DNA of 64,000 bases from assembly GCA_016199805.1 (NCBI GenBank), contig JACQGC010000004.1:19816-83815 (forward strand), written 5' to 3'. Origin of the DNA: Candidatus Nomurabacteria bacterium. GTDB taxonomy: Bacteria > Patescibacteriota > Minisyncoccia > Phycocordibacterales > UBA9973. The translations under genes and the position numbers were made by a program. How positions within the stretch are numbered: the stretch's first letter is position 1; every line of letters begins with the position of its first letter. This document shows, in pieces, positions 4,766-50,482 of this stretch. Under the pieces are notes generated by a model, which made no database searches, was not told the origin of the DNA, and was given only the letters and a program-made list of their open reading frames with translations.

Positions 4766-4844
4766 CAACCCCCTAAATCCCCCTTGTCAGGGGGACTCCC
4801 CAATTTTCCATCCCCTGATAAGGGGAGGGTTAGGGAGGGGTTGT
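4766..4844. repeat. GC-rich palindromic element with terminal inverted repeats CAACCCC/GGGGTTG and two internal hairpins
   Basis: TCCCCC-TTGTCA-GGGGGA and TCCCCT-GATA-AGGGGA hairpins; GGTTAGGGAGGGGTTG tail resembles other family members. Confidence 0.6.
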
Positions 4845-9639: not shown

Positions 9640-9748
9640 ATTTCTCGGACCCCCCCCCGCAGCGCCTTCAGCGCTTTTAAAAACAAAAACCGCCTACTCT
9701 CTTTGGTTTAACATATATAACGATTTTCCGAAAGCGCATAGATACACC

Positions 9749-10006
9749 TTGGGTGGAAAGATTGAAGATTATTTCCTCGGGTTGTTGGAAAACATTTTCA
9801 TTTCTATTTATCTACCGCCGGAAACTAAAATTCCCCGACTTATTATCGCAATTTCTAAACTTGATGGAGTTAAGTTTTTTCTACAAATCGCTTGGGAAAA
9901 TAAATGTATTAGTAATGAAAAATATTCCCAGCTTTCAGAAAAATTAGATGAAATTGGAAAAATGCTTGGTGGTTGGAAAAAAGGCCTAGAAAAGAAAACT
10001 CCCTGA
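9749..10006 (+). CDS. Avd-like four-helix-bundle protein (short or truncated; TTG start)
   Basis: C-terminus SEKLDEIGKMLGGWKKGLEKK and LPPETK segment match the TIGR02436/Avd family pattern (..FPKDE.. / ..EEVSKMLNGL..); about 30 aa shorter than typical and on the strand opposite the RT. Confidence 0.4.
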   Translation: MGGKIEDYFLGLLENIFISIYLPPETKIPRLIIAISKLDGVKFFLQIAWENKCISNEKYSQLSEKLDEIGKMLGGWKKGLEKKTP

Positions 10007-10030
10007 ACTTAGTCAGGGAGAAACATTCTT

Positions 10031-10147
10031 AGTTTCGGAACGACGATTCGATGAGCGTACTTGGCATTCCAGACATTGCTGTTCTCAAGCGGATTGACGT
10101 TCAAGTTCAGACGACCATCGTCATACACGTTGACGTTGGCAACGAAG
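10031..10147 (-). repeat. DGR template repeat (TR), 117 nt
   Basis: Near-identical to 10523-10639; all 18 mismatches fall on TR adenines (minus strand); AAC-rich. Confidence 0.85.
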
Positions 10148-10453
10148 ATTTGTAGGATAAGCCATCTATTCCACCGCCAGCCTGAGCATAACTTAATATC
10201 AAAGACTGTGCTGTATATTATTTGAGAGCGTAAAACTCTTCCAACTCACCCCACCAACTTTTATGTTTTTTTGTTTTAAAAAAGAATTCACTCTTCCACG
10301 AGACATATCCGGCGAAATTCTCAAATTGATTTTTAAGCAATCATGTCCCAAAGCCTTGACCGTGAGCATTTCCAGATTGCGGATTTAGTATATATTAAAA
10401 TTTAAAAAGATAAAGGGTCAAAGGGAAAAAGTTTCAAAGTGACAAATGAAAAA

Positions 10454-10502
10454 CCGTTCCTCCAGGTCGGCTTTTCACCTTACTGATGGAACGGTTTGAT
10501 GT
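10454..10502 (-). promoter_or_regulatory. inverted repeat/hairpin immediately downstream of VR (candidate DGR target-recognition structure)
   Basis: ccgttcctccagg ... ctgatggaacgg (10 of 12 complementary) with a ~19-nt loop, starting ~20 nt after the target stop codon. Confidence 0.5.
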
Positions 10503-10518
10503 TGAAACAGAAACAAAG

Positions 10519-11199
10519 TTACAGTTGCGGAACGACGACCCGATGAGCGCACCTGGCACCCCAGACATTGCTGAACTCAAGCGGATCGACGCCCAAGTCC
10601 AGACGACCATCGCCACACACGCTGACGCCGGCAACGAAGAAGCCGCCGTTTTCCCCCTCAAACAGGAAGAAGGTACCGTAGCCCTCTGCACGAAGATACT
10701 CGCGGTTGCGAGGATCTCGACAGAATGCCACGATTTGCGACTCCTGCCAGCAGAGACGTTTCAGATTCTCGCCGAAGCCTCCGAAGACCTGTGCGTAAGT
10801 ACCGTCTTTGATCATGTAGTAGACGGCTAGGACGGTTTTTTTCGTTGCCTTGCAGACTCCACGCTTCGCGGCTCCGTAGATGCCCGCATTGAAAACGTCA
10901 TTTGCTTCTGCCAGCGTCTCCTTCCCGTCGGTTTCCGCGAGCTCAATTGTGCGATCGGCAAACAAACGCTTGAGCCGCCCGACCACGTTCTCCGCGAGCT
11001 CGGCGAGAATAGTCTTCACCGTAGCTTTCACCACTGCCGCGATTTTATCACCCTGAGTCAATACCCGCTGAAAGTTATCGCCGTGGAGCACCCCGTTGGC
11101 GGAGAGCTCGATTACTGCCTCGTCTACTACCTTGCGGGTCGCAGACGCCACAACCGTCATCAACTGCTCTTTTCTTTCGAGTGTAATCATGCTGGGCAT
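10519..11199 (-). CDS. DGR target protein with C-terminal variable region (CLec/FGE-like fold inferred)
   Basis: VR occupies the last ~39 codons (..GYGTFFLFEGENGGFFVAGVSVCGDGRLDLGVDPLEFSNVWGARCAHRVVVPQL); higher GC than flanking genes. Confidence 0.8.
   Translation of the reverse strand: MPSMITLERKEQLMTVVASATRKVVDEAVIELSANGVLHGDNFQRVLTQGDKIAAVVKATVKTILAELAENVVGRLKRLFADRTIELAETDGKETLAEANDVFNAGIYGAAKRGVCKATKKTVLAVYYMIKDGTYAQVFGGFGENLKRLCWQESQIVAFCRDPRNREYLRAEGYGTFFLFEGENGGFFVAGVSVCGDGRLDLGVDPLEFSNVWGARCAHRVVVPQL
10523..10639 (-). repeat. DGR variable repeat (VR) at the 3' end of the target gene
   Basis: 117-nt match to the TR with 18 substitutions, exclusively at TR-adenine positions (A to G 15, A to T 2, A to C 1); ends 2 nt before the stop codon. 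Confidence 0.85.
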
Positions 11200-14270: not shown

Positions 14271-15716
14271 CTAACTTTTTGGTCTTAGTCTCGTCAGGTC
14301 GTGTGGAATGTATATTTCAACTTCTGTCGCCTGAGCTATCGCCCGCTGAACTTTTTCCGCTATTTCTAAGCGAAAAAGTGACGGATTCCCAGTGTAGAGA
14401 GAAAGTTCTTGGTAACGCTTAGCAAGTTCCGGAGAAGCCTCAACCTCTTGCTTGTCACCCTTGGCGTTGATGACCACTTCAAACCGAACCTTGGGTTGTT
14501 CGGCGACCACGGCGCCATTCGTCTTCTGCGGCGCAGGCGGCGCAACTTCCAGAGACACCATTGGTCTGCCCACGATGGCGGGAACCCCGGTCTCCGGCGT
14601 CATTGGTTTACCCATAGCGAAAACCGAACCCTCTTTCTTTTCGTTTGCGTCGGGTAGGTTTCTGGGCGGGTCTTTCGCTACCGCCATTAGCCTGACCCTT
14701 TTTACACCCTTCTCCACGCCCCTTTTCTTTATGCCGAACTTCAACTCATACGGTTCACCGTGAACCATCTTTTTCCTGATACACTCCTGTATGGCCTCAC
14801 GGTCTTGAATGGGCCACCCTTTATCTGACTCATACCAAAGGACTACCCTCAGGGCGTTCTCAATAATCCTCGGATTGAGACATGGAGCGCCGCTAAACAA
14901 AACGTTATCTATGTCACCCAGGCTGTTGTTTGTGGCATCGAAAGATATGGGCAGAGCGTGGTTGCCCGTAGCCAATAACTTTTTCAAGTCGCTCAGGTCC
15001 AGGTCCCTGACATCCCCCCAATCCTGGAGCAACGATTTGTAAAAATCCAAGATCCAGAACAGGGACGTCTCGTTTATTTTCTGCCAGGCCTCTTCGTCGT
15101 CAATTGTTTTGTCCTGCCACCTCTCATTCTCAATGAGCGTGACCGTGCAATATTTCAAGATCCGCTCGTACATGTCTCCGCCGTGCCTCACCCGCTCCGG
15201 CCCCTCACCCACACTAGGCATTGCGAGGATGGCGTAAGTGGGTATATTCATCTTCTGGAGCATTTCTGCTACCGGTGGCACTGCGCCACAAGTACCGCCA
15301 CCCAAACCGGCGACCAAGCAGACACTATCATACTTGGCAAAAAGGTCTTTAAGGAGTTTTGTTTTTTCCTCTTCCTTGACCATCTCTTCGCCTTTGTTCG
15401 CATCGCCGCCAGCTCCCCAACCTTTTTCTCCCAACTGAAGTTTAAGAAAACGGTCCTCAAGACGAGTCCAGCCGAGCATATGACCACAATCTGCTTCTTC
15501 GCTTTGGTTGACTTCAAAACGATTCTTCAACTGGCTCTGATTGGACTCCATAGCCAAAACAGTCAGGTGGGGATTCATCTCTGGATCATATTTTCTGAGC
15601 ATTGCCGCAATTGCCGTCGTGCCGCAACCGCCGAATCCCACAACTAACAATTTTGCTTTTACTTTGGGAGCAATTACTTCCTCTTTTTTTTCAACCTTCA
15701 CGTCTTTATCTGCCAT
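14271..15716 (-). CDS. divergent FtsZ/tubulin-superfamily GTPase
   Basis: T1 loop VVGFGGCGTTAIAAM, T3-like GWGAGGDANKGEE, T4 signature VAGLGGGTCGAVPPVAEM (cf. FtsZ GGGTGTG); alignable to E. coli FtsZ over the GTPase domain; long divergent C-terminal half. Confidence 0.8.
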   Translation of the reverse strand: MADKDVKVEKKEEVIAPKVKAKLLVVGFGGCGTTAIAAMLRKYDPEMNPHLTVLAMESNQSQLKNRFEVNQSEEADCGHMLGWTRLEDRFLKLQLGEKGWGAGGDANKGEEMVKEEEKTKLLKDLFAKYDSVCLVAGLGGGTCGAVPPVAEMLQKMNIPTYAILAMPSVGEGPERVRHGGDMYERILKYCTVTLIENERWQDKTIDDEEAWQKINETSLFWILDFYKSLLQDWGDVRDLDLSDLKKLLATGNHALPISFDATNNSLGDIDNVLFSGAPCLNPRIIENALRVVLWYESDKGWPIQDREAIQECIRKKMVHGEPYELKFGIKKRGVEKGVKRVRLMAVAKDPPRNLPDANEKKEGSVFAMGKPMTPETGVPAIVGRPMVSLEVAPPAPQKTNGAVVAEQPKVRFEVVINAKGDKQEVEASPELAKRYQELSLYTGNPSLFRLEIAEKVQRAIAQATEVEIYIPHDLTRLRPKS

Positions 15717-16446: not shown

Positions 16447-16854
16447 TTATTCTGCAACTTTTTCTGCCACTTCTTCCTCTTCCACATTGGCGACGGAACG
16501 CATTTTACTGCGAACGTCTTTGATAGCTTTGGTACGAATGTAATATAGTTTGCTCCTCTTGGCATGAGACCTCTTGGTGATTTCAATTTTACCAACCATT
16601 GGAGAAAAAAGCGGGAAAATTCTTTCCACTCCCACCCCAGAGGCCACCTTACGAACAGTAAAAGTAGCGCCGACTTCGGTGCCATGTTTTCTAGCCAAGA
16701 CGATGCCTTCAAAAATCTGGAAGCGAGCCTTGCCTTTTTCATCTATTATTTTTGAAGAGACGGAAACTGTATCACCTGCTCTAAAATCAAGCTTTTTTCG
16801 AGCTTCAATATCCACCGGACTAAACTTTATTTTGTTGATTTTATTTCCTGCCAT
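16447..16854 (-). CDS. rplS: 50S ribosomal protein L19
   Basis: FRAGDTVSVSSKIIDEKGKARFQIFEGIVLARKHGTEVGATFTVRKVASGVGVERIFPL; start taken at MAGNKINK (the ORF-track N-terminus is an upstream read-through). Confidence 0.9.
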   Translation of the reverse strand: MAGNKINKIKFSPVDIEARKKLDFRAGDTVSVSSKIIDEKGKARFQIFEGIVLARKHGTEVGATFTVRKVASGVGVERIFPLFSPMVGKIEITKRSHAKRSKLYYIRTKAIKDVRSKMRSVANVEEEEVAEKVAE

Positions 16855-16922
16855 CCCATTAAAAAATTTAAATAATAAAAGTACTACTTCCTGCAAGTCC
16901 GTTGATTTTCTAACGGGACACG
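16855..16922 (-). promoter_or_regulatory. diverged copy of the upstream element upstream of rplS
   Basis: CATCCCA..aaaagtactac.. then tccgttgattttctaacgggaca; shares both halves with the rplK/nusG/tsaE/secE copies. Confidence 0.4.
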
Positions 16923-16979
16923 TTGCCAAAACACTTTAACATAAAAGTTTTTCAAAGGCAACTAAGAATTATTTTTAAA

Positions 16980-19900
16980 CTATTTCCCCAATATCATCAT
17001 GGCCTTGGTCTTGGGACCAATGAGTCCATCGGACACAAGCCCATGATTCTTCTGCCACTGTTTGATGACAGCGATAGTCTTTGGCCCAATTTTGCCGTCT
17101 AAAACCAAACCGAGTTTCATCGTGTCATTTAGATATCTTTGCAGTTCTTTAGCGGTATCGCCTATACTTCCTAGTTTAAGAGTAGTGAAACCGAAATTAT
17201 ACATCAGCGTAGGATTGATGGCAGAAACATTTATGGTGTTTGTGGTCGCAATCGCAGTTTTGGCGGCAACATTTCCCGAACAAGATTGTCCCGTGGCAGT
17301 ACTAAAGCCCGTGATTCTAGAACCACAACCTGGCATAGATATCGGAGTAGGAGGTGTATAGCTTCCTCCCCCTCCACCACCGCCACTACTTGGCACATAA
17401 ACCAAGGTAAAGTTCGCGGTAATATTTTTATCCGCATCCATAGAAACAGTCATTGGATTAGCTGAAGAGGTGATATCTCCAGACCAATCAGAGAATGCGT
17501 ACCCGGAATTTGGAGTTGCAGTGAGAATGATAGAACTTCCAAAATCATAGTTTGCCTGGTCTGGGTTTTTGGCAACGGTGCCATTGGTGGAGAGAATGGA
17601 TATTATATAGGTGATGATATTATCTTGGATTTGAGTTGTGGCGGAACTCAAGGAAGCAGAACCGGTGCCACTTGCAGAAGAAGGGGTCACTTGGAATTTT
17701 AAATATTGTCCAATATCGGAAGAAGTTAATATATATGTAATAGCGGTTGCGCCACCGATGGCAGTATATGTTCCTCCCGAGGAAGAGGAACGAAGCCATG
17801 CATATGTTGTGCCGGATTCGGGCAAACTATTTGGGTCAGAAAATGCGTATGAACCTGTCAGTGTTTGGCCGATTGTTTTTGTGCCAGAAATGGTGACATT
17901 GGTAGCAGTAGGTAAACCGAAAGATTCTGTCGCTTGAGATTTAATTACATATGATGCTTTGTTCCCTGCTTCGTCTTTAAGTATAACATTAAAGTAATAA
18001 GTGGTGGTGGAAGAAAGACCGGAAACAGGAAGAGTGTTGATGTCTGTGGTGTAAGTGTTGAGTGGTGTGCCATTGGCTTCAATATTGGTCACCGTATCGA
18101 TATTATTGGAAGATGATTGATACACCCTGTATTGTAGAACTCCCTGAGCCGAGACATCGTCTGTGCCTTTAGTCCAATTTAAAGTAAGACTACTTGTAGT
18201 AACACTTGCAGTGGTAATGACGCCACTTGCTCCCGGTGTGGGATTTACTAAATCACCCGCTGAACTAACCGCGACCGGAGCATTTAAACTCGTGGAAATA
18301 TTTCCGTTGGCATCTTTGGCCCAGGCATAAAGAGTTTTTGAGCCATAAGTGGAGAACGTGTAATTGGCAGGAGCACTTCCTGTCCAACCGGCATTTCCTG
18401 CCAAGGGCGCCGTAGGTGACTCAGTCAGAAGATATCCGGTGACGCCAATATCGTCCGTGGCGGTAAAAGAAGATACGGAAACAGTCAATGAACTGGAAGT
18501 AGCGGGAATTGAGAAAGCAGTTACAGTGGGGGCGACATCGTCATACACATATGGTCCTAGGTCCCAATCATAGTTGGCGCGGTCAAGCAATTGAATATTG
18601 GTATAGCTGGCCGGACTCAAACCCACATTGTATGGAACGCCAAGATTTGTCCCGCTATTGATGAGAGAAGAACCGGGGGAAAGTCTGTAATCACTTGTGT
18701 CTGTGTATGTTTTTGTCCACGACAGACCACCATCAGAAGTCGTATGCCCATCGGAATAAATACCTGCCGCGATGGAAGATTGGGTAACAAAAGTTCCTCC
18801 GAGATTTCTTATTTCATCCACAAACCAAATCAATTTTTGGTTTGTCACATTAACGGCATCGGTAAGGTGCCAAAACATTCCTATGTAACCACCTGCGGCG
18901 GCGGCCAATAAATAAGTGTGACGAGCCACTTTACGAATATCGGCTTCAGTACTAAATCCATTCATCGCCCAAGACATTGCTTGCCCGGACAACATATATG
19001 GGTGGATTGATGGCATATACATATACCCCCCACCGGCTGACCGGGCACTGGTAAATGTGGAAGAAATCGTTGGCATATACGCTTCAGCCCCCGCATCGGA
19101 CCATCCTCCTCCATATGCAAAAGAAACTGGAACTGTTCCGATGTTGGATGCAATCCAACCAGCTGAATCTAAAATTTCTTCATCTCTATATGCTGACATC
19201 AGCATATTTACAACGTATGGAAAGGTTGTGCTGGTTTGGTTATCCAATGCCTTCAGACGCACAGGGTCATTCATATTTGTTGTATTGCTGATGGTCCACC
19301 CTTTTCCGGTGGCAGAAAGTCCGACGCATGCATTCGCCACATTGATAGTTTTCTTAAAATCACATAATGTTTTGTCTGTTACTGACCAATCAATCAGAAT
19401 ATTATTTTCTGGGTTACCACTACTAGCCAGACTGAGGGTGTGAGCGGTCCTGTCTATGGTTACTGTATTAGTTCCGGAATTTGTTGTTGATACAGTAAAC
19501 ATAGAAGTTTTGGTGACATCCGAATGAGACCAACTGTGCGAACCAATTTCTATTCCCCTAGCAGGAAGAGATGACAAAATAGTTTTACCTCCGGATGAAA
19601 TTCCTGTAAGATTTGTTAAATACGCCAAGAAAGGGATAGTGTTTGTTCCAAAGGCCGCATCAAATGCATCTGCCAATCCGCTGGAATACGCGGGGATACC
19701 TGCATAATCATCTCCATCAATAGACAAAACAATTTTTACTGCAGGAAAAGGTAAAGCTTTAAAGTTTGGAACCGTAGAATAATTATGTCCTCCATCGGTT
19801 ATGGTTCCACTTCCGGAAAAATTACCAGCTATAAAAGAAGCAGTTGTAACTCTATTATTGCCGAGAATAAGACTATAATCATAATCAATAGTGTTGCCAG

Positions 19901-20549
19901 TGGCAACGGCAACTCCGGCCCCGCCTGTAAAAACTCCCGTGCCATAACCATTTCCTTCAATGATTGAATTGCGAACAGTTGTGATTGCCCCTGTGCCAGC
20001 CATAGAAATTGCCGAACCGGCACATTGGGTAATCAATGAATTGTTTAGAGTCACCGTTGCTGAGTTGGCAACAGACAAACCAATTCCGGCGGCACGGCGT
20101 ATTATTACATTAGATAAAGACAATGAATCGGAAGCTCCAACTGATACGGTCCCTTGAAAATCCAAATACTCCGCCTTGATTCCGGTTCTACCTGTAACCA
20201 TATTTATCGCATAACCACTGGAACCAGGAATAGCCGGAAGTGCTCCGGTATCAGCGACATCATATAGTGTATAAGTTATACCATTTTGGCTAGGAGATAT
20301 TGACTGAGCCCATGAACAACCACGTTTAAACATAACCGTGGCATTCAATCCAGCTGAGGTGTTAGCTTTGGTAATATTTTTCCAGGCCGTTGCAGGAGAT
20401 GTTCCATCTCCTGTATCATTTGCAGCATTGCAGTCAACATAATACGTTGTGCCACCAGCATGAACCATCTTTCCGAAAGAAAACAAAAAGCAACAGAAAA
20501 CCAAAAATACAAATATTTTTTCTGTTTTATTGATTTTAATGCGAAACAT
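16980..20549 (-). CDS. giant secreted protein: right-handed beta-helix + polysaccharide deacetylase (NodB)-like + Ig/FN3-like repeats + C-terminal peptidoglycan-binding domain
   Basis: Signal/TM N-terminus; beta-helix repeats (NSIIEGNGYGTGVF..GNTIDYD..); LSIDGDDY and IGSHSWSHSD NodB-like motifs; C-terminal LNDTMKLGLVLDGKIGPKTIAVIKQWQKNHGLVSDGLIGPKT PG_binding_1-like. Confidence 0.65.
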   Translation of the reverse strand: MFRIKINKTEKIFVFLVFCCFLFSFGKMVHAGGTTYYVDCNAANDTGDGTSPATAWKNITKANTSAGLNATVMFKRGCSWAQSISPSQNGITYTLYDVADTGALPAIPGSSGYAINMVTGRTGIKAEYLDFQGTVSVGASDSLSLSNVIIRRAAGIGLSVANSATVTLNNSLITQCAGSAISMAGTGAITTVRNSIIEGNGYGTGVFTGGAGVAVATGNTIDYDYSLILGNNRVTTASFIAGNFSGSGTITDGGHNYSTVPNFKALPFPAVKIVLSIDGDDYAGIPAYSSGLADAFDAAFGTNTIPFLAYLTNLTGISSGGKTILSSLPARGIEIGSHSWSHSDVTKTSMFTVSTTNSGTNTVTIDRTAHTLSLASSGNPENNILIDWSVTDKTLCDFKKTINVANACVGLSATGKGWTISNTTNMNDPVRLKALDNQTSTTFPYVVNMLMSAYRDEEILDSAGWIASNIGTVPVSFAYGGGWSDAGAEAYMPTISSTFTSARSAGGGYMYMPSIHPYMLSGQAMSWAMNGFSTEADIRKVARHTYLLAAAAGGYIGMFWHLTDAVNVTNQKLIWFVDEIRNLGGTFVTQSSIAAGIYSDGHTTSDGGLSWTKTYTDTSDYRLSPGSSLINSGTNLGVPYNVGLSPASYTNIQLLDRANYDWDLGPYVYDDVAPTVTAFSIPATSSSLTVSVSSFTATDDIGVTGYLLTESPTAPLAGNAGWTGSAPANYTFSTYGSKTLYAWAKDANGNISTSLNAPVAVSSAGDLVNPTPGASGVITTASVTTSSLTLNWTKGTDDVSAQGVLQYRVYQSSSNNIDTVTNIEANGTPLNTYTTDINTLPVSGLSSTTTYYFNVILKDEAGNKASYVIKSQATESFGLPTATNVTISGTKTIGQTLTGSYAFSDPNSLPESGTTYAWLRSSSSGGTYTAIGGATAITYILTSSDIGQYLKFQVTPSSASGTGSASLSSATTQIQDNIITYIISILSTNGTVAKNPDQANYDFGSSIILTATPNSGYAFSDWSGDITSSANPMTVSMDADKNITANFTLVYVPSSGGGGGGGSYTPPTPISMPGCGSRITGFSTATGQSCSGNVAAKTAIATTNTINVSAINPTLMYNFGFTTLKLGSIGDTAKELQRYLNDTMKLGLVLDGKIGPKTIAVIKQWQKNHGLVSDGLIGPKTKAMMILGK

Positions 20550-20553
20550 AATT

Positions 20554-23500
20554 TTATTGCACCAAAGAATACATCAAGGCTTTTGTTTTTTCACCGACGA
20601 CACCGTCTGCAAGCAATCCATGACTTTTTTGCCATTTCATAACAGCGGAAAGTGTTGTTGTGCCAAACTTTCCGTCGAGAACCAACCCGGCTTTTGATGT
20701 ATCATTTAAATATCTTTGCAATTCTTTAACCGCATCTCCCGCACTCCCTTTTTGTAGAGTGACGGTACCTAAATTATATTTTTGGGTACTAGTTGAAGGA
20801 ATTGGTTTTGTGGGTTTTGGCGGAATTGGAGTTGTATCGCCATTTTTAGGAGTGGAAACCGGTTGTGGAGTCGGAATGTCAACAGGAACAGGAGCAGAAA
20901 TAACGCCGGTTGATATTTCATAGACGTGGGCTTGGTACGGAGTAAAGGTGTCGGTAAAACCATTTCCGGAAACAGTTAGGTTTCTATTCTCACCATAAAC
21001 AGACACCAGTGAAGGTGTCGTGCTCCAAGTAAAAGTGACTGGAACAGTTGCATTGGTATTATTGGAAGCAATCAGATATCCTCTGCCACCTGCATATTTC
21101 ACTCTGGTGTGAATACTGCTGTTTGAGCTGAAAGAAAGCAGGTCATTCTTATCAATGGAAGACAAGGCCGGTTGGAGAGAATTGAGTTCTGTGGTTACGG
21201 CTTTGAGGTTGTTGAAATTATCAACTTTGGCCTGACACCACGAGAGCGAACCGGAAGGCGAATGAGCCGCATCGGAACCATCACAGATATACGCCAAAGC
21301 CCCAACACCCAAACTCCAATACACTAGCCCATCGCTCCCCTCGGCAATTGCCATATAGGACATATTGCGAAGTTCCGCTTGGGTCGGCCAGCGACCCTTG
21401 GAAGTAAATTTAAAGAATTGGATGACAGTGGCAACAGGTCTGCTGTTTTGCACGGCATCTTTTGTGATTTTTGTCTGATTAGCCACTAGAGAATAATCAT
21501 AACCGCTAGCTGGTTCTGCTCCGTACAAAGCGTATGGGTCCATGGAAAGCAGGTCAACGGTGTCTCGCCAGTAAGACATTGAGTTTGGAGTATTCCCTGC
21601 GCCAAAAGAAAGACCGATAGGGTCAAGATTTCTCAACTTGTTGTAATAAGTAAACATATCCGGCGCCAAATAAGACACACATTCGTCCATATTGTATTGA
21701 CCGGCAAAACCAGGATATTGGCCCCGAGCAACAATATCGGCATCGCTGAAAGTTTTTAACCAACCATCATCATAAGTACTGGTTGAAAAACAATTGGCGT
21801 TGGAAACAAGAGATATCCCATGTCTCTGTAAAACATTCATCAGCGGAAAGGCAGCGCTGTTTGGCATATTACCCAGCCAATAATTAAACCAGAAATTTAC
21901 CGGCAGTTCAAATAATCGCTTGGTAGAGGTGAGCGTGTTTTCCCAAGTGGTTTCGCTCATTGAGTATCCACCACCGGAATCATACACACCGAGCAAAAAC
22001 TTTGGCTGACCGTTAAATAAAATCTGATTATTTTGATTGAAGGAAATAGGAATGGAATTTCTGACAGAGCCGGAAACTTTGGAAATTCTATAAGACGGAT
22101 ATTCGTACAAAGCTACACTATTTGAACTGCGCAATAATTTAAACCGCGCCAAATAAGTATGGCCATTTGTCATGCTGGAGCCACTTAAAGTAGCTGTAAA
22201 ATCGGCAGATGATGAGTATGATTGGTTTGCAACCACGGAACCGCTGGATTCGTCTGTCAGAGTAATTTCCGGTTTCCAATCGCCAAGCGTTGTCCCAGCC
22301 GGAGGATTTATCTTTACATCAAATTTTATGGTCTGAGACTGGTCGTCAAAAAGAAATCCTTTATAATTTGGATAGAGCATAAATACATCCATGGGTGACT
22401 GATATTCTTCTTGTATCGCCATATCGTCAAACCAAGCCTGACCTGCCGGTTCATTCCAGCTTTCCAAAACAAATTTCACACTTGAAGAATCCTGATTGAT
22501 GACAACATTTTTTAACTCAACATATGTCCAATCATTGACTCCATTCAGACATTTACCCACCCCGTTTCCGGCACTGCCTGCGTTTACACTAATACGAACA
22601 CAGGGATGAATAGTAGTATCAACCAAGTTTGTTTTTATCCAACCGCTGATACGATAAGATCCTTTTTTCAAAGAAAGAGTCTGCCTGGCGGATTCCGTAT
22701 AGGGGAAACTGGGAGCGTCTTTCATACTATAACTACTTGCTCCGCCATGAACTGTAGAAGAATCAACCAGAAAAGCGGACGAACCCGACCAATTTGCCGG
22801 TTTACCACTGGATAATGTTTCAAAACCGGAGTTAAGTAATAAATTTGGACCGAGGCTAGCCATTGGATACCACATCAACCCTCCAGCCACCAATCCATTG
22901 ATTGGAGCAGACGGAGTCGGAGCATTAAATTCCATCATGTCACTTGCGCTACTACAACCTGGGTCATTCGGATAATCTATTTTGCCATCCAAGTCATTAT
23001 CAATGCCATCAGAACATTGTGGAAGGCTTGAATCTGGAAGAACAACGACGGGCGGAGTCGGGGTGCTGACTGGCGGTATATTTGTAGTTGGCAAGGTTGT
23101 CGTTGGAGTTGTCGGATTGTTGTTCGTAGGGGTTGTGGTAGGCGGTGGCGTGTTGCCGGTATTACTAATCATCACGGAAGCATCGTCAAACCAAGCTGTG
23201 CCATTTGGGTCTCCATACATTTCTACAACAAAGTAAGCCGGAGAATCATTGGTGATTGTGACATTCTGCACCTGTAAATATTGCCAGTCGCTGGCACCTT
23301 TTATGATTTGTGATGACTTACATCCATTAACGCAGGCATTTGGGTATACTCCGGTATTAAAATTTATTCTCAAACCACTACCAACCGTTGATGCTACCCC
23401 ATCCATTTTCACCCACATGCCAATATTGTAAACACCCTTTGGAAGGGTGCCGATAGTTTGCATTGCCGACTGGGAATAAGGTATCAAGTTTGCATTAACG

Positions 23501-23805
23501 ATTTTTAAGCTATGCGTTCCCGTGTGGGCCACACTCCCATCAACTGTAAATCCGTTTGCGCTCCAGCTCAGTGGTTTACTGCTGGTATCTGTGTTTTCAA
23601 AACCTCCATTGGTAATATATTCTGTTGTATTCAATACTTGCCCCTGCAGAGAAGAACTGGGAACATTTACAGGATTTGTATTTCTAACTGACACAAAAAT
23701 CACAACACCAATAAAAACAATAAACACAACCAGAGAATAGTGCGTTTTCAAAAAATTTTTTAACATAAATTTTTTAACAAAATTAATTAATAATTGATTT
23801 TTCAA
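20554..23805 (-). CDS. giant secreted protein: two CBM4/9-like carbohydrate-binding modules + central domain + C-terminal peptidoglycan-binding domain
   Basis: N-terminal TM; repeated GFENT..W..NGF..DGS.AHTG..S modules; Thr/Pro linkers; C-terminal SAGDAVKELQRYLNDTSKAGLVLDGKFGTTTLSAVMKWQKSHGLLADGVVGEKT paralogous to the neighbouring gene. Confidence 0.65.
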   Translation of the reverse strand: MKNQLLINFVKKFMLKNFLKTHYSLVVFIVFIGVVIFVSVRNTNPVNVPSSSLQGQVLNTTEYITNGGFENTDTSSKPLSWSANGFTVDGSVAHTGTHSLKIVNANLIPYSQSAMQTIGTLPKGVYNIGMWVKMDGVASTVGSGLRINFNTGVYPNACVNGCKSSQIIKGASDWQYLQVQNVTITNDSPAYFVVEMYGDPNGTAWFDDASVMISNTGNTPPPTTTPTNNNPTTPTTTLPTTNIPPVSTPTPPVVVLPDSSLPQCSDGIDNDLDGKIDYPNDPGCSSASDMMEFNAPTPSAPINGLVAGGLMWYPMASLGPNLLLNSGFETLSSGKPANWSGSSAFLVDSSTVHGGASSYSMKDAPSFPYTESARQTLSLKKGSYRISGWIKTNLVDTTIHPCVRISVNAGSAGNGVGKCLNGVNDWTYVELKNVVINQDSSSVKFVLESWNEPAGQAWFDDMAIQEEYQSPMDVFMLYPNYKGFLFDDQSQTIKFDVKINPPAGTTLGDWKPEITLTDESSGSVVANQSYSSSADFTATLSGSSMTNGHTYLARFKLLRSSNSVALYEYPSYRISKVSGSVRNSIPISFNQNNQILFNGQPKFLLGVYDSGGGYSMSETTWENTLTSTKRLFELPVNFWFNYWLGNMPNSAAFPLMNVLQRHGISLVSNANCFSTSTYDDGWLKTFSDADIVARGQYPGFAGQYNMDECVSYLAPDMFTYYNKLRNLDPIGLSFGAGNTPNSMSYWRDTVDLLSMDPYALYGAEPASGYDYSLVANQTKITKDAVQNSRPVATVIQFFKFTSKGRWPTQAELRNMSYMAIAEGSDGLVYWSLGVGALAYICDGSDAAHSPSGSLSWCQAKVDNFNNLKAVTTELNSLQPALSSIDKNDLLSFSSNSSIHTRVKYAGGRGYLIASNNTNATVPVTFTWSTTPSLVSVYGENRNLTVSGNGFTDTFTPYQAHVYEISTGVISAPVPVDIPTPQPVSTPKNGDTTPIPPKPTKPIPSTSTQKYNLGTVTLQKGSAGDAVKELQRYLNDTSKAGLVLDGKFGTTTLSAVMKWQKSHGLLADGVVGEKTKALMYSLVQ

Positions 23806-23832
23806 TAAAAAAACTCGACCTGTTGGTTCGAG
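23806..23832 (-). terminator. rho-independent terminator downstream of the Com-like gene
   Basis: Minus-strand hairpin CTCGAACC-AACA-GGTCGAG followed by TTTTTTT. Confidence 0.55.
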
Positions 23833-23865
23833 CTTCGCGAGCTTCTCTTGTTAAACTAATCCCTT

Positions 23866-24090
23866 CTACTTATCTGTATCTGGAATCAAACCTTGATTTA
23901 TTAACACCGCACGTTTTCTAATAATCTCTGCATCTGGCCCTTGAAAGAATTGTATATTATGACAATTCCGACATTTTACTTCCAGCATGTTGTCTTTATC
24001 CGTCAGACAACCCTTGCACAAAAGCTTGTCGCATTTATCGCACCGATATTCATTTAGTTCCATATTCCGCATTATACTACACGCAAGCAA
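23866..24090 (-). CDS. Com-like zinc-finger protein (phage Mu Com family-like)
   Basis: YRCDKCDKLLCKG...LEVKCRNCHNIQFF matches the Com CxxC..KLL...CxxC pattern; 74 aa; immediately downstream of a Cys-rich gene. Confidence 0.45.
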   Translation of the reverse strand: MLACSIMRNMELNEYRCDKCDKLLCKGCLTDKDNMLEVKCRNCHNIQFFQGPDAEIIRKRAVLINQGLIPDTDK

Positions 24091-24150
24091 AAAATCTATC
24101 GGAAGAAAAATGCCTGTGGATAACTCAAAAACACTGTTTTGTTGTAAAAA

Positions 24151-25848
24151 TTAGGCAAATTCCTGTTGGTAGCATTTTTCGCAGTAGACCGTCTCGGGTC
24201 TGCCTGGGGCAAAAGAGGTTCTGATTGCCTTGCCACACTTCATACACTGCCGGTCATAAAGTTTTGGCATTTGCAATTTATTAAAACGTGATTTTTCCCG
24301 GCACTTTAGACATCTACTCGGGAGCGGAATGTTCATTTTTCGCAAAAGGTCAAATTCGAGCGAAGCAATTTTGTATTTTCTGTCACAAGTCGTACAAGAA
24401 ATCACTTCTTTTAAGATTGAATCATTCACTTCGCCGATAGTTTCCGGAAAGTCTTCCCCTTTTATTGTCGCTTCCACTTGTTGTTCGGCTTCGTCGTTCC
24501 AAGTGTATCCCGCTTTCAGAGCTTCTTCTTTTGTTTTTGGGAAAAATTTAAAAGCGTTCGAATTGTTGTAAGCGAATTTACTGAAACCGGGCTGAAAAAA
24601 TTCTCCGTAAGGCCAAGCTCTGCCTTGTTCATCTATGTATGGATTATTTTTCATATCTTCAATGATTTTTTCTTTCAAAGCTTCATATTCTTCTTTGGAA
24701 TATTCTTTGTTCAAGATGCAATACGATTTTCTTTTTAGATTCACGCAACCGAAATTGTTTTTTGACGCCGGACACCAAAGACAATACTCGGAATTCAAAA
24801 CATCAGGAAAACAATATGCGGAAAACTTTACGTTGGCGACATTATCCCCCACGCTGGCCGACTCATACAGGAGCTCGGCATTAGCTCCCCAGCCGGAATA
24901 ATCCATGCAATCTTTTACCGGAGAGACGGAAATCATCTGGCACCATTTGCTGTTCTCAACCTTGCTACCAATATATATTTCTTTTGAATTTTTGGAATTA
25001 AACAAATATTCCCCGGTGACATTCAAGTTTAGGGTGTTCCCGGTGTAAAACCGATAGGGGTGTTCCAACCAAAATTTCTCTGCTTCCTTTTTCACTTTTT
25101 CAATTCCGGAACGCGTGTCCAGTTTCATTTCTTTTAATTTTTCCGCGTATTCTTCCTTAGAATATTTAACATTAAAAATACAATTTGAAGCGCCACGTAA
25201 ATTTACACAACCCACGCAATTCATAGAGCTGTAACAGTTGCGGGAAAACCATACATCGGTGCAAGCATCACACTCTTGCGAGTAAAAAACACGATAACAA
25301 TCATTCTGCCCGATACTTTCATAGCATAGTTCTGACTTGAATATGCGCAGAGAATCAGCTGTGTCTTTGGCTGTGTTTAAAATTGAAGAAAAATAAACGT
25401 TCTCACAATAGTCTGCTCCAGTAATCAAAGTACAATTCTTTGAATAAGCCAAGGCATTGCAATAATCACAATTTTTTAGTGTTAAAAAAGTTGATTCCAG
25501 CGCAACGTACGGAACTTTTTCTGACAATTCTTTTACCTGTTCTAGGAATGGTCGTTTTGAATCATAATCCATTGCGGATTCTGTGCCATCCCAATCATCC
25601 GCCCACCAGCATGGCTGACAAAATACTGTAATTTCTTGCTCCGGTGGATACATAGATAGTGTACGCTTGCCACATTTATCGCAATTTCGGTAAAAAAGCG
25701 ACCACCAGTTTATGCATGTAAAACGCCTAATCATCCGGCATTCCGGGCACCAGGTCGGTGCTGGGACTTTTATTTTTTCGTAAAAAGAAAAATCTGACTC
25801 TTCAACAACAAACTCCGATTTACAATTTTGACATGTTTTATTTTCCAT
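24151..25848 (-). CDS. large cysteine-rich protein with N- and C-terminal zinc-ribbon motifs (paralog A)
   Basis: N-term CQNCKSEF..FYEKIKVPAPTWCPECRMIRR, C-term CTTCDRKY..IPLPSRCLKCREKSR ... YCEKCYQQEF; internally duplicated Cys-ladder modules each ending KYSKEEY..LKE; paralog at 57686-59404. Confidence 0.6.
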   Translation of the reverse strand: MENKTCQNCKSEFVVEESDFSFYEKIKVPAPTWCPECRMIRRFTCINWWSLFYRNCDKCGKRTLSMYPPEQEITVFCQPCWWADDWDGTESAMDYDSKRPFLEQVKELSEKVPYVALESTFLTLKNCDYCNALAYSKNCTLITGADYCENVYFSSILNTAKDTADSLRIFKSELCYESIGQNDCYRVFYSQECDACTDVWFSRNCYSSMNCVGCVNLRGASNCIFNVKYSKEEYAEKLKEMKLDTRSGIEKVKKEAEKFWLEHPYRFYTGNTLNLNVTGEYLFNSKNSKEIYIGSKVENSKWCQMISVSPVKDCMDYSGWGANAELLYESASVGDNVANVKFSAYCFPDVLNSEYCLWCPASKNNFGCVNLKRKSYCILNKEYSKEEYEALKEKIIEDMKNNPYIDEQGRAWPYGEFFQPGFSKFAYNNSNAFKFFPKTKEEALKAGYTWNDEAEQQVEATIKGEDFPETIGEVNDSILKEVISCTTCDRKYKIASLEFDLLRKMNIPLPSRCLKCREKSRFNKLQMPKLYDRQCMKCGKAIRTSFAPGRPETVYCEKCYQQEFA

Positions 25849-25922
25849 AACTTTTTTGCAGCCTGCCCCGTATGAAGCTTTGCTTTCGTTCGGGGTTTTG
25901 GCAGACCTTGGTTTCCATTTAT

Positions 25923-26717
25923 TTATTTTATCACTTTTTCAAACTCCTTCGGAATTTTAGATTCTATTTTTACTGTTTTGCCTTTCATATCTTTAAATTC
26001 TATGGATTTGGCATGCAGAAACATGCGGATTCCTTTTTTTTCCTCCCCTGCGAAGGGGAGGCGTAGGAGGGGTGAACTTTTTGGATTATAAAGCGCATCT
26101 CCCGCCACCGGATGATTTAAAAATTTCATATGCACGCGAATTTGATGTGTCCGACCGGTTTTTGGTTTTAGTTCCAAATAGGTAAATTTCCTCCCCTCCT
26201 TATTGAGGAGGGGCTTCGGGGTGGTGATTTCTAATCTCTTGAGTACTTTGTATTCCGTAATCGCCTCCCGCATCTCTCCCCTAGCGCCGCGACCTGCCAA
26301 GCGGCGGCGAAAATCCGAAGGACTGCGGCCAATGGGTTTGTTTATCACTCCGCGGTCTTCTTTTACCCAACCGTCTACAATAGCTACATAAGTTTTTTTA
26401 ATATCTCTGCCCATAAATTGATTTTTTAAAAACTCATGCGCTTTTTGGTTTTTTGCCAAAAGCATTACTCCGGAAGTTCCGCGGTCCAGTCTGTGAACAA
26501 TGCCCGGCCGGTCTATTTCCCCCATCGGCTCCCCTACACCTTTCATTTTCGGATAATTTTTGATTATCCAACTAGTGATAAAAGTTTCTTTTTTTTTGCC
26601 ATCAGCGCCTGCCCCGTAGTGAGCTTGCTCTACTGCGGGGTGCACAGAAATGCCCCAAGGCTTTTCAATGGCCAAAATGTCTTTATCTTCGTATAAAACT
26701 TTGATTTTCATATGCAT
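25923..26717 (-). CDS. RluA-family pseudouridine synthase
   Basis: PGIVHRLDRGTSGVMLLAKN catalytic motif; carries two in-frame palindromic-element insertions. Confidence 0.85.
   Translation of the reverse strand: MHMKIKVLYEDKDILAIEKPWGISVHPAVEQAHYGAGADGKKKETFITSWIIKNYPKMKGVGEPMGEIDRPGIVHRLDRGTSGVMLLAKNQKAHEFLKNQFMGRDIKKTYVAIVDGWVKEDRGVINKPIGRSPSDFRRRLAGRGARGEMREAITEYKVLKRLEITTPKPLLNKEGRKFTYLELKPKTGRTHQIRVHMKFLNHPVAGDALYNPKSSPLLRLPFAGEEKKGIRMFLHAKSIEFKDMKGKTVKIESKIPKEFEKVIK
26038..26076. repeat. palindromic element copy inserted in-frame in the RluA-family gene
   Basis: cctcccct-gcga-aggggagg followed by aggaggggtgaac; encodes ..SSPLLRLPFAGEEKKG.. Confidence 0.6.
26189..26228. repeat. second palindromic element copy inserted in-frame in the RluA-family gene
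   Basis: cccctcct-tattg-aggagggg followed by cttcggggtggtga; encodes ..TPKPLLNKEGRKF.. Confidence 0.6.
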
Positions 26718-26803
26718 TTTGATTATACACTTTCAACCAACCAAGAGCTATAAACCTTCACAATTTTTGACATATTTATAAATATGTGTTAAATTGAATA
26801 GGA

Positions 26804-27514
26804 ATGAGGAATAAATTGTTCTTTCTGACAATCATCGTCATGCTCATGACGCTGGTTAACGGCCCTGTGAGGGCCAGCGTAATATATGTTGGAATCGAAG
26901 ACACTGCCCTCCCGGGCGGCGACAAAGATTACCAAGACATCATCCTCACAATTTCCGGCGCCACATTGGCCGGAAATTACGGATGGAAACCCATGGTCGC
27001 TCCAAATTACGACGGTGTTCCGTATTTCGACGGCGCCTCGTATGACGGGCCACACATGGGATTCATGGACTTCGCGCTCGGCACCGGCGGCTTTGCCGGA
27101 AACCCGACGAGTCCACACCTGACACTCGCAACAACCAAGTTCTGGGGATCAACAACAGGAAGCTACGATGCCTCCACTCACTTCACCAGCAATGGTGCGG
27201 TGGACGAGAACGTGCTGATTGAAGTGTCTGCCTGGTCTGGACAAAACACCTTGGGCTGGGCCAATACCGCATCGCTTTGGTTGGTCAACTCTCTCTCCGC
27301 CGATGCCGGCGGAAGTGTGTCATTCCGTCCGGGGAGTGATTTTGTACTTGTGTTTAGTTCTCCCGGTGGAAACATGAACCAGAAATGCGACGGTGAGCAG
27401 TTCGCATTTTTGGAGTCAGACTCGGCCCCCGAACCGGCCTCCATGGCGCTCATCGGCGGCGGGTTGCTGGGCCTCGGTTTCTGGAGGCGCCGAAAGAAAC
27501 AAGCGAAGCAGTAA
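26804..27514 (+). CDS. PEP-CTERM sorting-domain protein (secreted, Gly/Ala-rich), high GC
   Basis: N-terminal signal peptide; C-terminal DSAPEPASMALIGGGLLGLGFWRRRKK (PEP motif, TM helix, basic tail). Confidence 0.7.
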   Translation: MRNKLFFLTIIVMLMTLVNGPVRASVIYVGIEDTALPGGDKDYQDIILTISGATLAGNYGWKPMVAPNYDGVPYFDGASYDGPHMGFMDFALGTGGFAGNPTSPHLTLATTKFWGSTTGSYDASTHFTSNGAVDENVLIEVSAWSGQNTLGWANTASLWLVNSLSADAGGSVSFRPGSDFVLVFSSPGGNMNQKCDGEQFAFLESDSAPEPASMALIGGGLLGLGFWRRRKKQAKQ

Positions 27515-31992: not shown

Positions 31993-32337
31993 TTATTTTG
32001 CCCGTGCGCCAGCCGGAATTTCATTATTTGGCTCAAGTAAAGAAAATTTACCGTCTTCTGTAGAAACGGCTAGTATCATCCCCTGGCTTTCAATTCCCCG
32101 AATCATCCTGGGTTCCAAATTGGCGACAAACATGCATTTTTTACCCACTAAAACGGAGCAATCGGGAAAATACAAAGAAATTCCGGAAACAATTGTTCGT
32201 GGAGTGGCTTCACCCAAATCAACCGAGAGTTTCAAAAGCTTGTCTGTCTCCGGAACTTTTTCCGCCGACAAAATCTTCCCCACGGCGATATCTATTTTTT
32301 TAAAATCTTCTAATGTAATCATAAATACATTATACAC
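31993..32337 (-). CDS. tRNA-binding domain protein (CsaA/EMAP-like)
   Basis: DIAVGKILSAEKVPETDKLLKLSVDLGE...IVSGIS typical OB-fold tRNA-binding domain. Confidence 0.65.
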   Translation of the reverse strand: MYNVFMITLEDFKKIDIAVGKILSAEKVPETDKLLKLSVDLGEATPRTIVSGISLYFPDCSVLVGKKCMFVANLEPRMIRGIESQGMILAVSTEDGKFSLLEPNNEIPAGARAK

Positions 32338-32406
32338 CTCACCCCTTTCCCCTCTCCATTTTCTTAAAATGGAGAGGGGTGGCTCGCTTGCGAGACGGGG
32401 TGAGGT
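32336..32406. repeat. full-length intergenic palindromic element (reference copy)
   Basis: ACCTCACCCC-ttt-CCCCTCTCCATTTT-ctta-AAAATGGAGAGGGG-tgg-CTCGC-ttg-CGAG-ac-GGGGTGAGGT; nested inverted repeats. Confidence 0.7.
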
Positions 32407-34661: not shown

Positions 34662-34693
34662 AAAAAACACCCCGACCATCGGGGTGTTTTTTG
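34662..34693. terminator. bidirectional rho-independent terminator
   Basis: CACCCCG-ACCAT-CGGGGTG hairpin flanked by an A-run and a T-run. Confidence 0.6.
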
Positions 34694-50345: not shown

Positions 50346-50394
50346 ACTTTATAAAAACACTACTACTAGTACCCCCTTTTAGCAAACGAATTTT

Positions 50395-50482
50395 TTTCCT
50401 CTCCTTTCCATGAGATGGTTAGGGTGAGGTTGTTCCCCTCGCCAGTACTATGGAGAGGGGTTGGGGGTGAGGTTTTAGTGAT
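50395..50482. repeat. composite intergenic palindromic element
   Basis: cctctcc..ggttagggtgaggttg..cccctc-gccagtactatg-gagagggg-ttgggggtgaggtttt. Confidence 0.6.

Follow-up and report, generated by a model that had tools for sequence, protein, structure and literature searches.

What are the palindromic segments in the rluA gene of this 64-kb window (the whole stretch of DNA that was analysed, with a G+C content of 42.3%), and how did they come to lie inside a protein-coding sequence? The gene encodes an RluA/RluD-type pseudouridine synthase and, in the original prediction made from the sequence alone, was thought to contain two independent in-frame palindromic insertions. Comparison with homologous proteins and orthologous loci bears out this claim and adds a third insert from a distinct repeat family. 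Inserted in frame and read through, the two predicted segments, denoted elements A and B, are most probably decayed copies of a dispersed repeat that is short, non-autonomous and hairpin-forming.

The inserts of rluA

The gene and its three inserts are located as follows.
25923-26717, minus strand: RluA/RluD-type pseudouridine synthase gene (rluA) from the open reading frame (ORF) list, 264 codons counted from the first ATG
26034-26076, minus strand: element A, the insert at site 3 (sequence, stem, RNA fold, homologue and codon alignments, predicted local distance difference test (pLDDT) scores)
26190-26228, minus strand: element B, the insert at site 2 (sequence, stem, RNA fold, gap relative to Protein Data Bank (PDB) structures, comparison with the orthologous locus L083, pLDDT)
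26605-26642, minus strand: third in-frame hairpin insert, at site 1, of a distinct repeat family, with the peptide PAVEQAHYGAG

Judging from its sequence, rluA is an intact member of the RluA/RluD-type pseudouridine synthases in a genome of the Candidate Phyla Radiation (CPR). The NCBI gene model gives a product of 262 aa (start MKIKV), and the protein matches, with 100% identity, an NCBI entry of a 214-kb contig that is named 'RluA family pseudouridine synthase [Candidatus Nomurabacteria bacterium]'. The PseudoU_synth_2 domain (PF00849) scores 101.5 bits against a Pfam gathering cut-off of 26.8 (E 6.9e-29), and RluD, RluC and RluA structures are all matched (E 3e-29 to 7e-17), the closest being those of the RluD type (PDB RluD matches with E 1e-23 to 3e-29). 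The HRLD motif, which is the site of the catalytic Asp in the RluA family, is intact (GIVHRLDRGTSG at aa 72-83), and H75, R76, L77 and D78 are invariant across a 29-sequence alignment. The AlphaFold model built on the alignment has a mean pLDDT of 81.7 and a predicted template modelling (pTM) score of 0.83; pLDDT values below 50 are limited to aa 30-42, 169-174 and 220-228, which belong to the site-1 insert, element B and element A, respectively.

Both of the predicted segments (26038-26076 and 26189-26228) contain perfect 8-bp hairpins and are translated in frame within the 264-codon ORF, with exactly the peptides originally given. On the window strand, the hairpin of element A (CCTCCCCT-GCGA-AGGGGAGG, 26042-26061) is preceded by T8 at 26034-26041 and followed by CGTAGGAGGGGTGA to position 26075; in the gene sense, the element reads TCACCCCTCC-TACG-(CCTCCCCT TCGC AGGGGAGG)-A8 and yields the peptide SSPLLRLPFAGEEKK, in the context ...YNPKSSPLLRLPFAGEEKKGIRMF... 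(aa 213-229 of the product). The hairpin of element B (CCCCTCCT-TATTG-AGGAGGGG, 26193-26213) is followed on the window strand by CTTC-GGGGTGGTGAT to position 26228, and the gene-sense reading is ATCACCACCCC-GAAG-(CCCCTCCT CAATA AGGAGGGG)-AGG, which yields TTPKPLLNKEGR in the context ...LEITTPKPLLNKEGRKFTY... (aa 164-177). The RNA hairpins of A and B have folding energies of -17.9 and -15.6 kcal/mol, respectively. The peptides encoded by the inserts of rluA include TTPKPLLNKEGR, SSPLLRLPFAGEEK and AVEQAHYGAG.

The two elements share a common layout in the gene sense, namely an arm (TCACCCCTCC or ATCACCACCCC), 4 nt, the hairpin and an A-rich tail; the flanking arm beside the C-rich hairpin is TCACCCC or CACCACCCC. 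In this orientation the hairpin is followed by an A-run, and the elements are therefore not terminator-like; the reverse orientation would put a T-run after the hairpin. The stems at 26042-26061, 26193-26213, 6515-6539 and 62893-62914, as well as those of other copies, are of the CCTCC/GGAGG type and may be read as a Shine-Dalgarno (SD)-like AAGGAGG paired with an anti-SD-like CCTCCTT that resembles the 3' tail of 16S rRNA.

Whether these segments are insertions was assessed with the 120 best homologues of the rluA product (60-73% identity, all of the Paceibacteria type; n = 121 with the window protein). These proteins are 228-288 aa long, the commonest length being 232-233 aa, without segments A and B. 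Inserts occur at three sites.
Site 1, after VHP: base form SVHPDG; the window protein adds PAVEQAHYGAG; insert in 32/121
Site 2, between VLKRF and KFTYLE: base form KRFxDKKNKFTY; window form EITTPKPLLNKEGR; insert in 58-67/121
Site 3, between LYNP and RLALHA: base form DSLYNPxGxCPKGISRL; window form KSSPLLRLPFAGEEKKGI; insert in 15-17/121

These hot spots are occupied in 13-55% of the homologues by differing repeat-derived peptides; site 1 is empty in 89/121 proteins, site 3 in at least 104/121, and any insert at site 2 is missing in 54-63/121. Site 2 accommodates at least five unrelated insert types (e.g., TTPNPLLRKEGR, TSPQPSPYKGEG, NFSSCALPRVRGGTLGDKNF and FFYARGSHPVLGEGRSAKK), with three inserts in tandem in one protein (P0042), and the usual insert at site 3 is GPLPsLPLiKGEEKGGG. 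All PDB alignments with solved RluD-type structures show a 13-residue gap exactly at ITTPKPLLNKEGR (site 2), and the alignment with PDB 11wx shows a 10-residue gap at VEQAHYGAG (site 1); the site-3 stretch is natively variable and of similar length in E. coli RluD and PDB 11wx, with no alignment gap. The three sites coincide with loops that are indel-prone in distant RluA-family members as well, as seen in the PDB alignments.

The homologue alignment had been proposed as a check, native conserved residues being the outcome that would have counted against insertion; instead, the base forms and the PDB gap reveal empty sites, and a base protein of 232-233 aa without either segment is found among the 120 homologues. 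The predicted independence of the two insertions holds as well, given that one homologue is filled at site 3 only (P0002) and another at site 2 only (P0016). Two explanations had been offered for a pair of insertions in one gene. Tolerance of the protein region is favoured by the unrelated inserts that share the same loops and by the low pLDDT values, so that the location of A and B in insertion-tolerant loops is supported by the alignments and the model; a local insertion preference is the less likely of the two. The search for target-site duplications, also suggested at the outset, lent no support, the flanks being of low complexity or natively repeated.

The hot-spot pattern is general, with MurB homologues behaving like those of RluA in sequence comparisons: the base length in 120 MurB homologues is 336-337 aa, compared with 358 aa for the window protein, and inserts are present at individual hot spots in 6-39/120 (TSPPAPLLVKE, TSPQPSPLRR, LTPDPSPYKGE, LPAQAG and PTKVGVPTEV).

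At the DNA level, eight orthologous loci (L081, L083-L085 and L087-L090) were compared, with codons threaded on the protein alignment. Among the matches listed in the scan for orthologous contigs, the relatives are all distant (at most 57% identity); the rluA orthologues are 70-79% identical to the window at the DNA level and 47-60% at third codon positions. In the codon alignment around element A, L081, L083, L088 and L090 are filled and L084, L085, L087 and L089 are empty. The left part of site 2 in L083 is the same as in the window (ACCACCCCGAA-CCCCTCCTT-AATC-AAGGAGGGG-AGG), and L083 retains an intact element, in which ACCACCCC and the hairpin are followed by another hairpin, then by the side hairpin GCCCAAAGGGC and finally by GGGGGTGA as the right arm; element B is thus the left-hand half of a longer repeat bounded by terminal inverted repeats. 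A different family member, ACCTCACCCCAACCCTCTCCTTATAATAAAGGAGAGGGG, occupies site 2 of L089, and L088 has there ACCTCACCCCAACCC alone, the arm of an element that L089 still carries in full, as the footprint of an in-frame 30-nt loss of the hairpin; footprints of this type show that hairpins get deleted. Site 3 of L081 and L090 contains the nested palindrome ACCCCTACCC-AA-CCTCCCCCTT-NNN-AAGGGGGAGG-AGAAA-GGAGGGGGT. The site-3 stem of the window is shorter but perfectly paired (CCTCCCCT/AGGGGAGG), and element A is a decayed copy in which an A-run replaces the right arm GGAGGGGGT present in the orthologues. The peptides at site 1 form a graded series of decay (PAVEQAHYGAG, PAAEQARYGAG, PAAEQVRFRTG, PAAEKGHNKAES and also PAAEKGHNK).

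In the phylogenetic tree of the rluA homologues, each insert type is scattered among empty-site forms, and Fitch parsimony requires 10-35 changes per insert character, near the count obtained with shuffled labels, i.e., there is almost no phylogenetic clustering. Such scatter would mean many gains and losses, recombination, or both. Near the 3' end of the rluA gene of L083 (P0003), at yet another site, a perfect 18-nt palindrome CCTGCCTGCGCAGGCAGG lies in frame and encodes LPAQAG, a peptide that is also present at two hot spots in MurB homologues.

Dispersed repeats in the window and in related contigs

Elements A and B fit the consensus ACCTCACCCC-N2-3-CCCCTCTCC-loop-GGAGAGGGG-(GGGGTGAGGT) of a family that consists of an arm ACCTCACCCC (or ACCACCCC), 2-4 nt and a homopyrimidine/homopurine hairpin CCCCTC(T)CC…GG(A)GAGGGG. 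Full-length copies add a small second hairpin and end with the inverted arm GGGGTGAGGT; elements A and B and most of the other copies have a single arm. The pattern CCTCCCCTN{2,16}AGGRGGGG, which covers A and B, has 3 matches in the window and 0 in 100 dinucleotide shuffles. For C-rich hairpins that begin with the pyrimidine arm, there are 14 matches (~12 distinct), with 0.63 expected from Markov shuffles; for the mirror type, which begins with the purine arm, there is 1. At 14 copies per 64 kb, the Poisson probability of two copies within 795 bp is ~0.013 (our calculation). The window has 0.22 family copies per kb and its closest relatives have 0.24-0.29, compared with ~0.04 per kb elsewhere in the first 930 kb of the orthologous and related loci compared; about 5 of the 12 copies in the window are intragenic. 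Besides A and B, the following members and relatives were detected.
4767-4836, plus strand: two intergenic C-rich hairpins downstream of the SIMPL gene, TCCCCCT…AGGGGGA and TCCCCT…AGGGGA
6515-6552, minus strand: in-frame copy in murB, ACCTCACCCCC-AA-(CCCCTCTCCTT GCG AAGGAGAGGGG), with the peptide MTSPPTPLLAKERGE
32336-32406, plus strand: full-length intergenic copy with 10-bp terminal inverted repeats
50389-50473, minus strand: two tandem units, intergenic
54601-54637, plus strand: intergenic copy with the arm and an 11-bp hairpin, upstream of ruvA
55233-55265, minus strand: intergenic copy between the convergent ruvA and amidase genes
62820-62920, minus strand: two adjacent copies in uvrA (hairpins at 62826-62846 and 62893-62914)

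The hairpins at 4767-4836 are looser relatives of the family. The copy in murB falls in a 15-residue gap relative to MurB of PDB 4jay and is missing from most of the 120 MurB homologues; the copies in uvrA make up the bulk of an extra segment of ~45 residues, residues 145-195 having no counterpart in solved UvrA structures. The full-length copy at 32336-32406 has the layout ACCTCACCCC-TTT-(14-bp hairpin)-TGG-(CTCGC TTG CGAG)-AC-GGGGTGAGGT, and full-length copies with terminal inverted repeats also occur in L083 and in L089 (5701-5755 and 10804-10857). The arm-plus-hairpin architecture recurs in the related CPR contigs L031, L083, L089, L159 and L201, and looser forms were found in a Margulisiibacteriota locus (L066) and an Anaerolineae locus (L046). 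In the CPR-like contig L031 (2198-2420), a 548-codon ORF contains two family copies in frame (…TEEPHPNPLLIKERE… and …GNTPHPNPLLIKERGEGE…), a second instance of two copies in a single gene. The examined copies leave 2-5 of the 6 reading frames open, compared with a rough expectation of ~2.5 for random 40-mers of the same composition; freedom from stops in all frames was considered as a special property of the repeats and dropped, being barely above that expectation.

The insert at site 1 (CACCCCGCAGTAGAGCAAGCTCACTACGGGGCAGG in the gene sense) represents a different and far more widespread family. Its 33-nt core CCCCGCAGTAGAGCAAGCTCACTACGGGGCAGG has 0 mismatches among the window, L081 and L087, the surrounding genes of which are ~73% identical, and the chance of such identity under neutral divergence is ~3e-5 per pair by our calculation. 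The element occupies the same codon position (GTG CAC followed by CCC…) in the window, L081, L087 and L176, and third-position identity between the orthologues with identical site-1 DNA is just ~50%. An exact search with the 18-nt apex GTAGAGCAAGCTCACTAC matched at least 120 metagenome contig stretches, in many different genes. Among the matches listed, there are 87 distinct contexts with different flanks, 41 of which lie within ORFs of at least 150 codons: the two sense frames without stops hold 18 and 15 copies, the two antisense frames without stops hold 4 each, and the two frames that contain TAG hold 0/41. Since the family occurs in several frames and in 87 contexts, the copied unit is DNA rather than a peptide, and since its copies in long ORFs are confined to stop-free frames, the element is evidently translated. 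In-frame copies were found, among others, in UvrB/Mfd-like (…GGIIDVFPINPVVEQAHYGAGLNYAIRIEFF…) and RseP-like (…GGFVKIYGENPEVEQAHYGAGPDDD…) proteins. The basal stem varies but remains paired (CCCCGTA…GGGG, CCCAGTA…GGGA, ACAGGGTA…CCTGT and GCCATGCA…ATGGC), and the 3' tail is CARG. In L125, L185 and L199, two inverted copies lie beside GGCTCCCCC, as if in a larger structured unit. One further relative is present next to rluA.
25861-25907, minus strand: intergenic direct repeat (…CCCCGAACGAAAGCAAAGCTTCATACGGGGCAGGC…), related to the site-1 family but diverged, between rluA and the neighbouring gene

Origin of the inserts

The explanation that we consider most probable is that copies of the hairpin repeat landed in the rluD-like gene at separate times, at codons for surface loops or turns. 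Because insert length is a multiple of three and there is no stop in frame, the ribosome reads through such inserts, and each adds 9-12 residues of the Pro/Leu…Lys/Glu/Gly type to a loop. Another hairpin family supplied the third insert, the same loops being re-used by many types of elements that are often gained and lost. The clustering of inserts at few loops is probably mainly a survival filter, whereby insertions elsewhere, out of frame or in the terminator orientation were lethal and lost. The copying itself might be performed in trans by an enzyme that recognizes the arm and the hairpin and leaves no duplication, as do HUH/Y1 single-strand transposases of the IS200/IS605 and REP-associated tyrosine transposase (RAYT) types (PMC3116915, PMC3733652); mobilization by such an enzyme is the weakest part of the explanation and is offered tentatively.

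Several observations weigh against this explanation. Pfam scans of ~60 ORFs of the window revealed no transposase, Y1_Tnp or RAYT, and a rough tblastn search of 1.67 Mb of loci gave no match to IS200 TnpA or RAYT (YafM), which is a weak negative. No consistent direct repeat flanks the four full-length copies or the arm-plus-hairpin copies, and at rluA no target-site duplications were found, the flanks in filled-versus-empty comparisons being A-runs/AAAAAG or the native repeat A TTY ACC around site 2; therefore, classical cut-and-paste behaviour of a miniature inverted-repeat transposable element (MITE) is unsupported. The insert boundaries are imprecise to the base, the closest empty-site orthologues being 70-75% identical at the DNA level, and the inserts at sites 2 and 3 apparently take the place of a few native codons instead of merely interrupting the sequence. 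The event counts, derived from a neighbour-joining tree of 163 core columns, are rough. Finally, the site-1 element is perfectly conserved between lineages whose synonymous sites are saturated, which would not be predicted for a purely neutral old insertion and requires recent or recurrent insertion, gene conversion or function.

This last point also counts in favour of targeted, homing-like insertion: if elements inserted, for example, 3' of a native CAC/CACC that mimics their own arm, the hot spots would reflect insertion preference. The site-1 element sits at one and the same codon in four loci, identical in DNA despite the divergence at third positions; all three inserts of rluA open with (T)CACC…CCC right after native sequence; and the near lack of phylogenetic signal in the insert states is what recurrent insertion at one site would give. 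However, the element types at site 2 number at least five, are unrelated and differ in their ends, which fits a permissive loop better; the arm belongs to the element in intergenic copies; the same sites are indel-prone loops in distant members of the RluA family; and the 87 site-1 contexts listed share no flank beyond A-richness. On balance, targeting appears unlikely to be the main cause of the pattern. A broader version, which is more speculative still and to which we give a distinctly small chance, is that CPR (Paceibacteria) genomes share coding-compatible hairpin modules that are held constant across lineages saturated at synonymous positions. If true, this would imply either an undescribed type of machinery for active, sequence-specific and perhaps also site-specific (homing-like) insertion and gene conversion, or a role of the hairpins in the host, such as a signal for recognition or uptake or an RNA module of the SD/anti-SD-like type; in either case, essential enzymes of these minimal genomes would have their surface loops constantly reshaped by the modules.

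Function is also the essence of the proposal that the hairpins are selected nucleic-acid signals (a sequence bound by a protein or of the DNA-uptake type, a hairpin that affects mRNA stability or pausing, or a module of the SD/anti-SD-like type), with the copies in genes as a by-product. The apex GTAGAGCAAGCTCACTAC is exact in at least 120 contigs while the basal stem co-varies, although the invariance is partly built into a search with an exact 18-mer. The arm-plus-stem consensus of A and B extends to distant lineages (the Margulisiibacteriota and Anaerolineae loci), the CCTCC/GGAGG stems may pair anti-SD-like with SD-like sequences, and orthologous copies retain pairing by two-sided changes (CCTCCCCT/AGGGGAGG versus CCTCCCCCTT/AAGGGGGAG); these pairing-preserving changes were taken from orthologous copies, a formal covariation count being circular for copies chosen for perfect stems. 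Conversely, decay is visible in the site-1 series down to PAAEKGHNK, in the lost right arm of element A and in the footprint of L088, most orthologues fare well without inserts, and the Rfam search over 25700-26900 matched no family (the best score was 19.5 bits against a threshold of 55.5, a level of sub-threshold chance matches). A selected signal is accordingly an improbable origin for the inserts.

Very improbable is the formation of the palindromes de novo, by template switching during replication or by hairpin-primed repair. The stems do differ among copies and are always self-complementary, and small perfect palindromes such as CTGCCTGCGCAGGCAGG (LPAQAG) occur at further sites; but unrelated loci and genomes share the non-palindromic arm ACCTCACCCC, the spacer and the side hairpin GCCCNNNGGGC, and an 18-nt apex that is identical among copies is beyond the reach of local template switching. 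Even less plausible is that the hairpins remain untranslated, being skipped by the ribosome or cut from the mRNA. There are precedents for bypass in the GC-rich 'byp' elements of some yeast mitochondria and in T4 gene 60, and the stability of these GC-rich hairpins (-12 to -18 kcal/mol) within a gene richer in AT would suit it; nevertheless, every insert examined in rluA, murB, uvrA and eight orthologous loci is in frame and stop-free, and the site-1 copies in long ORFs use only the four stop-free frames (33 sense and 8 antisense). Bypass or excision is unlikely precisely because the frame and the freedom from stops are always preserved. The last candidate, that A and B are native, lineage-specific loop sequence, retains practically no credibility, the similar length of the site-3 stretch in E. 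coli RluD and PDB 11wx notwithstanding, being contradicted by the empty sites in homologues, the dispersed-repeat DNA and the 13-residue PDB gap.

Comparison with known repeats and other elements of the window

For elements that behave as the most probable explanation suggests, namely as decayed repeat copies read in frame, the closest parallel are the Rickettsia palindromic elements (RPEs), described in a summary of Ogata et al. (2000, 2002) as ~100-150 bp repeats of ten families, with 44 in-frame insertions in R. conorii and a conserved encoded peptide per family (PMC10969869). As far as that summary goes, the likeness extends to palindromic selfish repeats in a reduced genome that lie in frame in unrelated housekeeping genes, are read as an extra peptide compatible with the fold and have no known transposase; truB, another pseudouridine synthase gene, is among the Rickettsia hosts. 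The elements described here, compared by description rather than by alignment, differ in being 35-70 nt long with homopyrimidine/homopurine stems, in their host (Patescibacteria/CPR), and in the presence of several unrelated families at one loop, in several frames and in both orientations. The behaviour is thus RPE-like, and size, host and frame usage set these elements apart from the RPEs.

Repetitive extragenic palindromes (REPs) and their inverted pairs (REPINs) are similar in that they are dispersed GC-rich hairpins of 20-40 nt, single or in inverted pairs, some of them in ORFs; the A/B family likewise consists of short GC-rich dispersed palindromes. Intragenic REPs have been noted in repair genes, sometimes two per ORF, and REPs of the GTAG/CGTC superfamily carry an unpaired tetranucleotide at one end of the hairpin (PMC3733652). 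Mobilization of REPs has been proposed to involve a hairpin-recognizing Y1 transposase that acts in trans without target duplication (PMC3116915, PMC3733652). In the present families, in contrast, most copies have no unpaired GTAG/CGTC tag: the spacers are AA, TT, TG, TAG, GAAG and TACG, and the 10-nt arm ACCTCACCCC is found where the tag would be. A nearby CTAC/GTAG is present in element A only, with the opposite polarity, and the GTAG of the site-1 family is inside the stem. The intragenic share is also far higher here, unlike the mostly extragenic location of REPs. MITEs such as Correia/NEMIS, ERIC, RUP and Nezha (PMC10969869) are comparable in that they are short and non-autonomous, can form in-frame fusions and have terminal inverted repeats, as do the full-length copies; the differences are the lack of detected target-site duplications, the predominance of single-arm 'half' elements and the smaller size. 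No cognate autonomous element or transposase with matching ends was detected among the ~60 ORFs of the window. The byp-like expectation that frame and stops are free to vary does not apply to these inserts, all of which are in frame and stop-free. One further lead are the small dispersed repeats (SDRs) of cyanobacteria, very short hairpin-forming mobile repeats that, in work by Elhai and colleagues from 2008, which PMC3116915 cites, reportedly insert into genes and into each other; both their hosts and their sequences differ from those described here.

Neither these repeats nor intragenic palindromes in CPR were found described in a literature search with incomplete coverage. The selfish hairpins described here are RPE-like or intragenic-REP-like elements of CPR bacteria, from repeat families for which that search returned no description. 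CPR genomes are ~1 Mb in size and thought to be streamlined, yet essential enzymes (rluD-like, murB and uvrA) each hold several hairpin repeats, and 'protein-coding palindromes', a phenomenon formerly described as exclusive to Rickettsia, thus extend to a second, unrelated group with reduced genomes. The most notable features are the three inserts in a 0.8-kb gene, the family-wide turnover at hot spots and the perfect conservation of the site-1 element, the last of which, extending across diverged lineages, offers a way to track down whatever enzyme or function maintains the repeats. In practical terms, such inserts inflate apparent protein divergence, yield spurious 'CPR-specific' indels in alignments and trees and may seed misassemblies; at the same time, the repeat families provide a natural map of insertion-tolerant loops.

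The window contains further elements of other kinds.
7113-7148, minus strand: double CCCGAC/GTCGGG hairpin of another repeat family, in frame in murB (PTKVGVPTGVG), at a 6-residue gap relative to PDB
8644-9639, minus strand: reverse transcriptase of a diversity-generating retroelement (DGR), RVT_1 E 7e-26
9749-10003, plus strand by the ORF scan: bAvd-like ORF of the DGR, E 2.7e-9, just below the Pfam cut-off
10031-10148: template repeat of the DGR
10523-10640: variable repeat of the DGR, at the 3' end of the target gene (10519-11199, minus strand)

Peptides similar to PTKVGVPTGVG are present in 19/120 MurB homologues. The CCCCGAC…GTCGGGG stem family also has intergenic copies at 34667-34687 and 52377-52398, flanked by an A-run and a T-run, which look like bidirectional terminators. 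Pfam matches longer than the respective profile, namely those of the Fpg N-terminal domain (141 residues versus 117 positions), SIMPL and NusG, suggest that these housekeeping proteins may hide more repeat-derived inserts. A 481-aa protein of the tubulin/FtsZ family has a weak Tubulin-domain score (E 1.4e-13; regions listed: 14271-15716 and 56126-57046).

In five orthologous loci (L081, L083, L087, L089 and L090), rplS (L19) directly follows rluA, and in the window rplS lies at 16447-16929, ~9 kb away from rluA (stretch 16447-25848). The intervening stretch, which looks like an inserted island, contains three large genes, one for a 565-aa Cys-rich protein with a treble-clef zinc-finger match and two for proteins of 1083 and 1189 aa with PG_binding_1 domains at their ends. 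The DGR at 8644-11199 is complete and accounts for the sole reverse transcriptase among the scanned ORFs of the window; all 18 of its 18 template-variable mismatches are T on the plus strand, i.e., template adenines on the gene strand.

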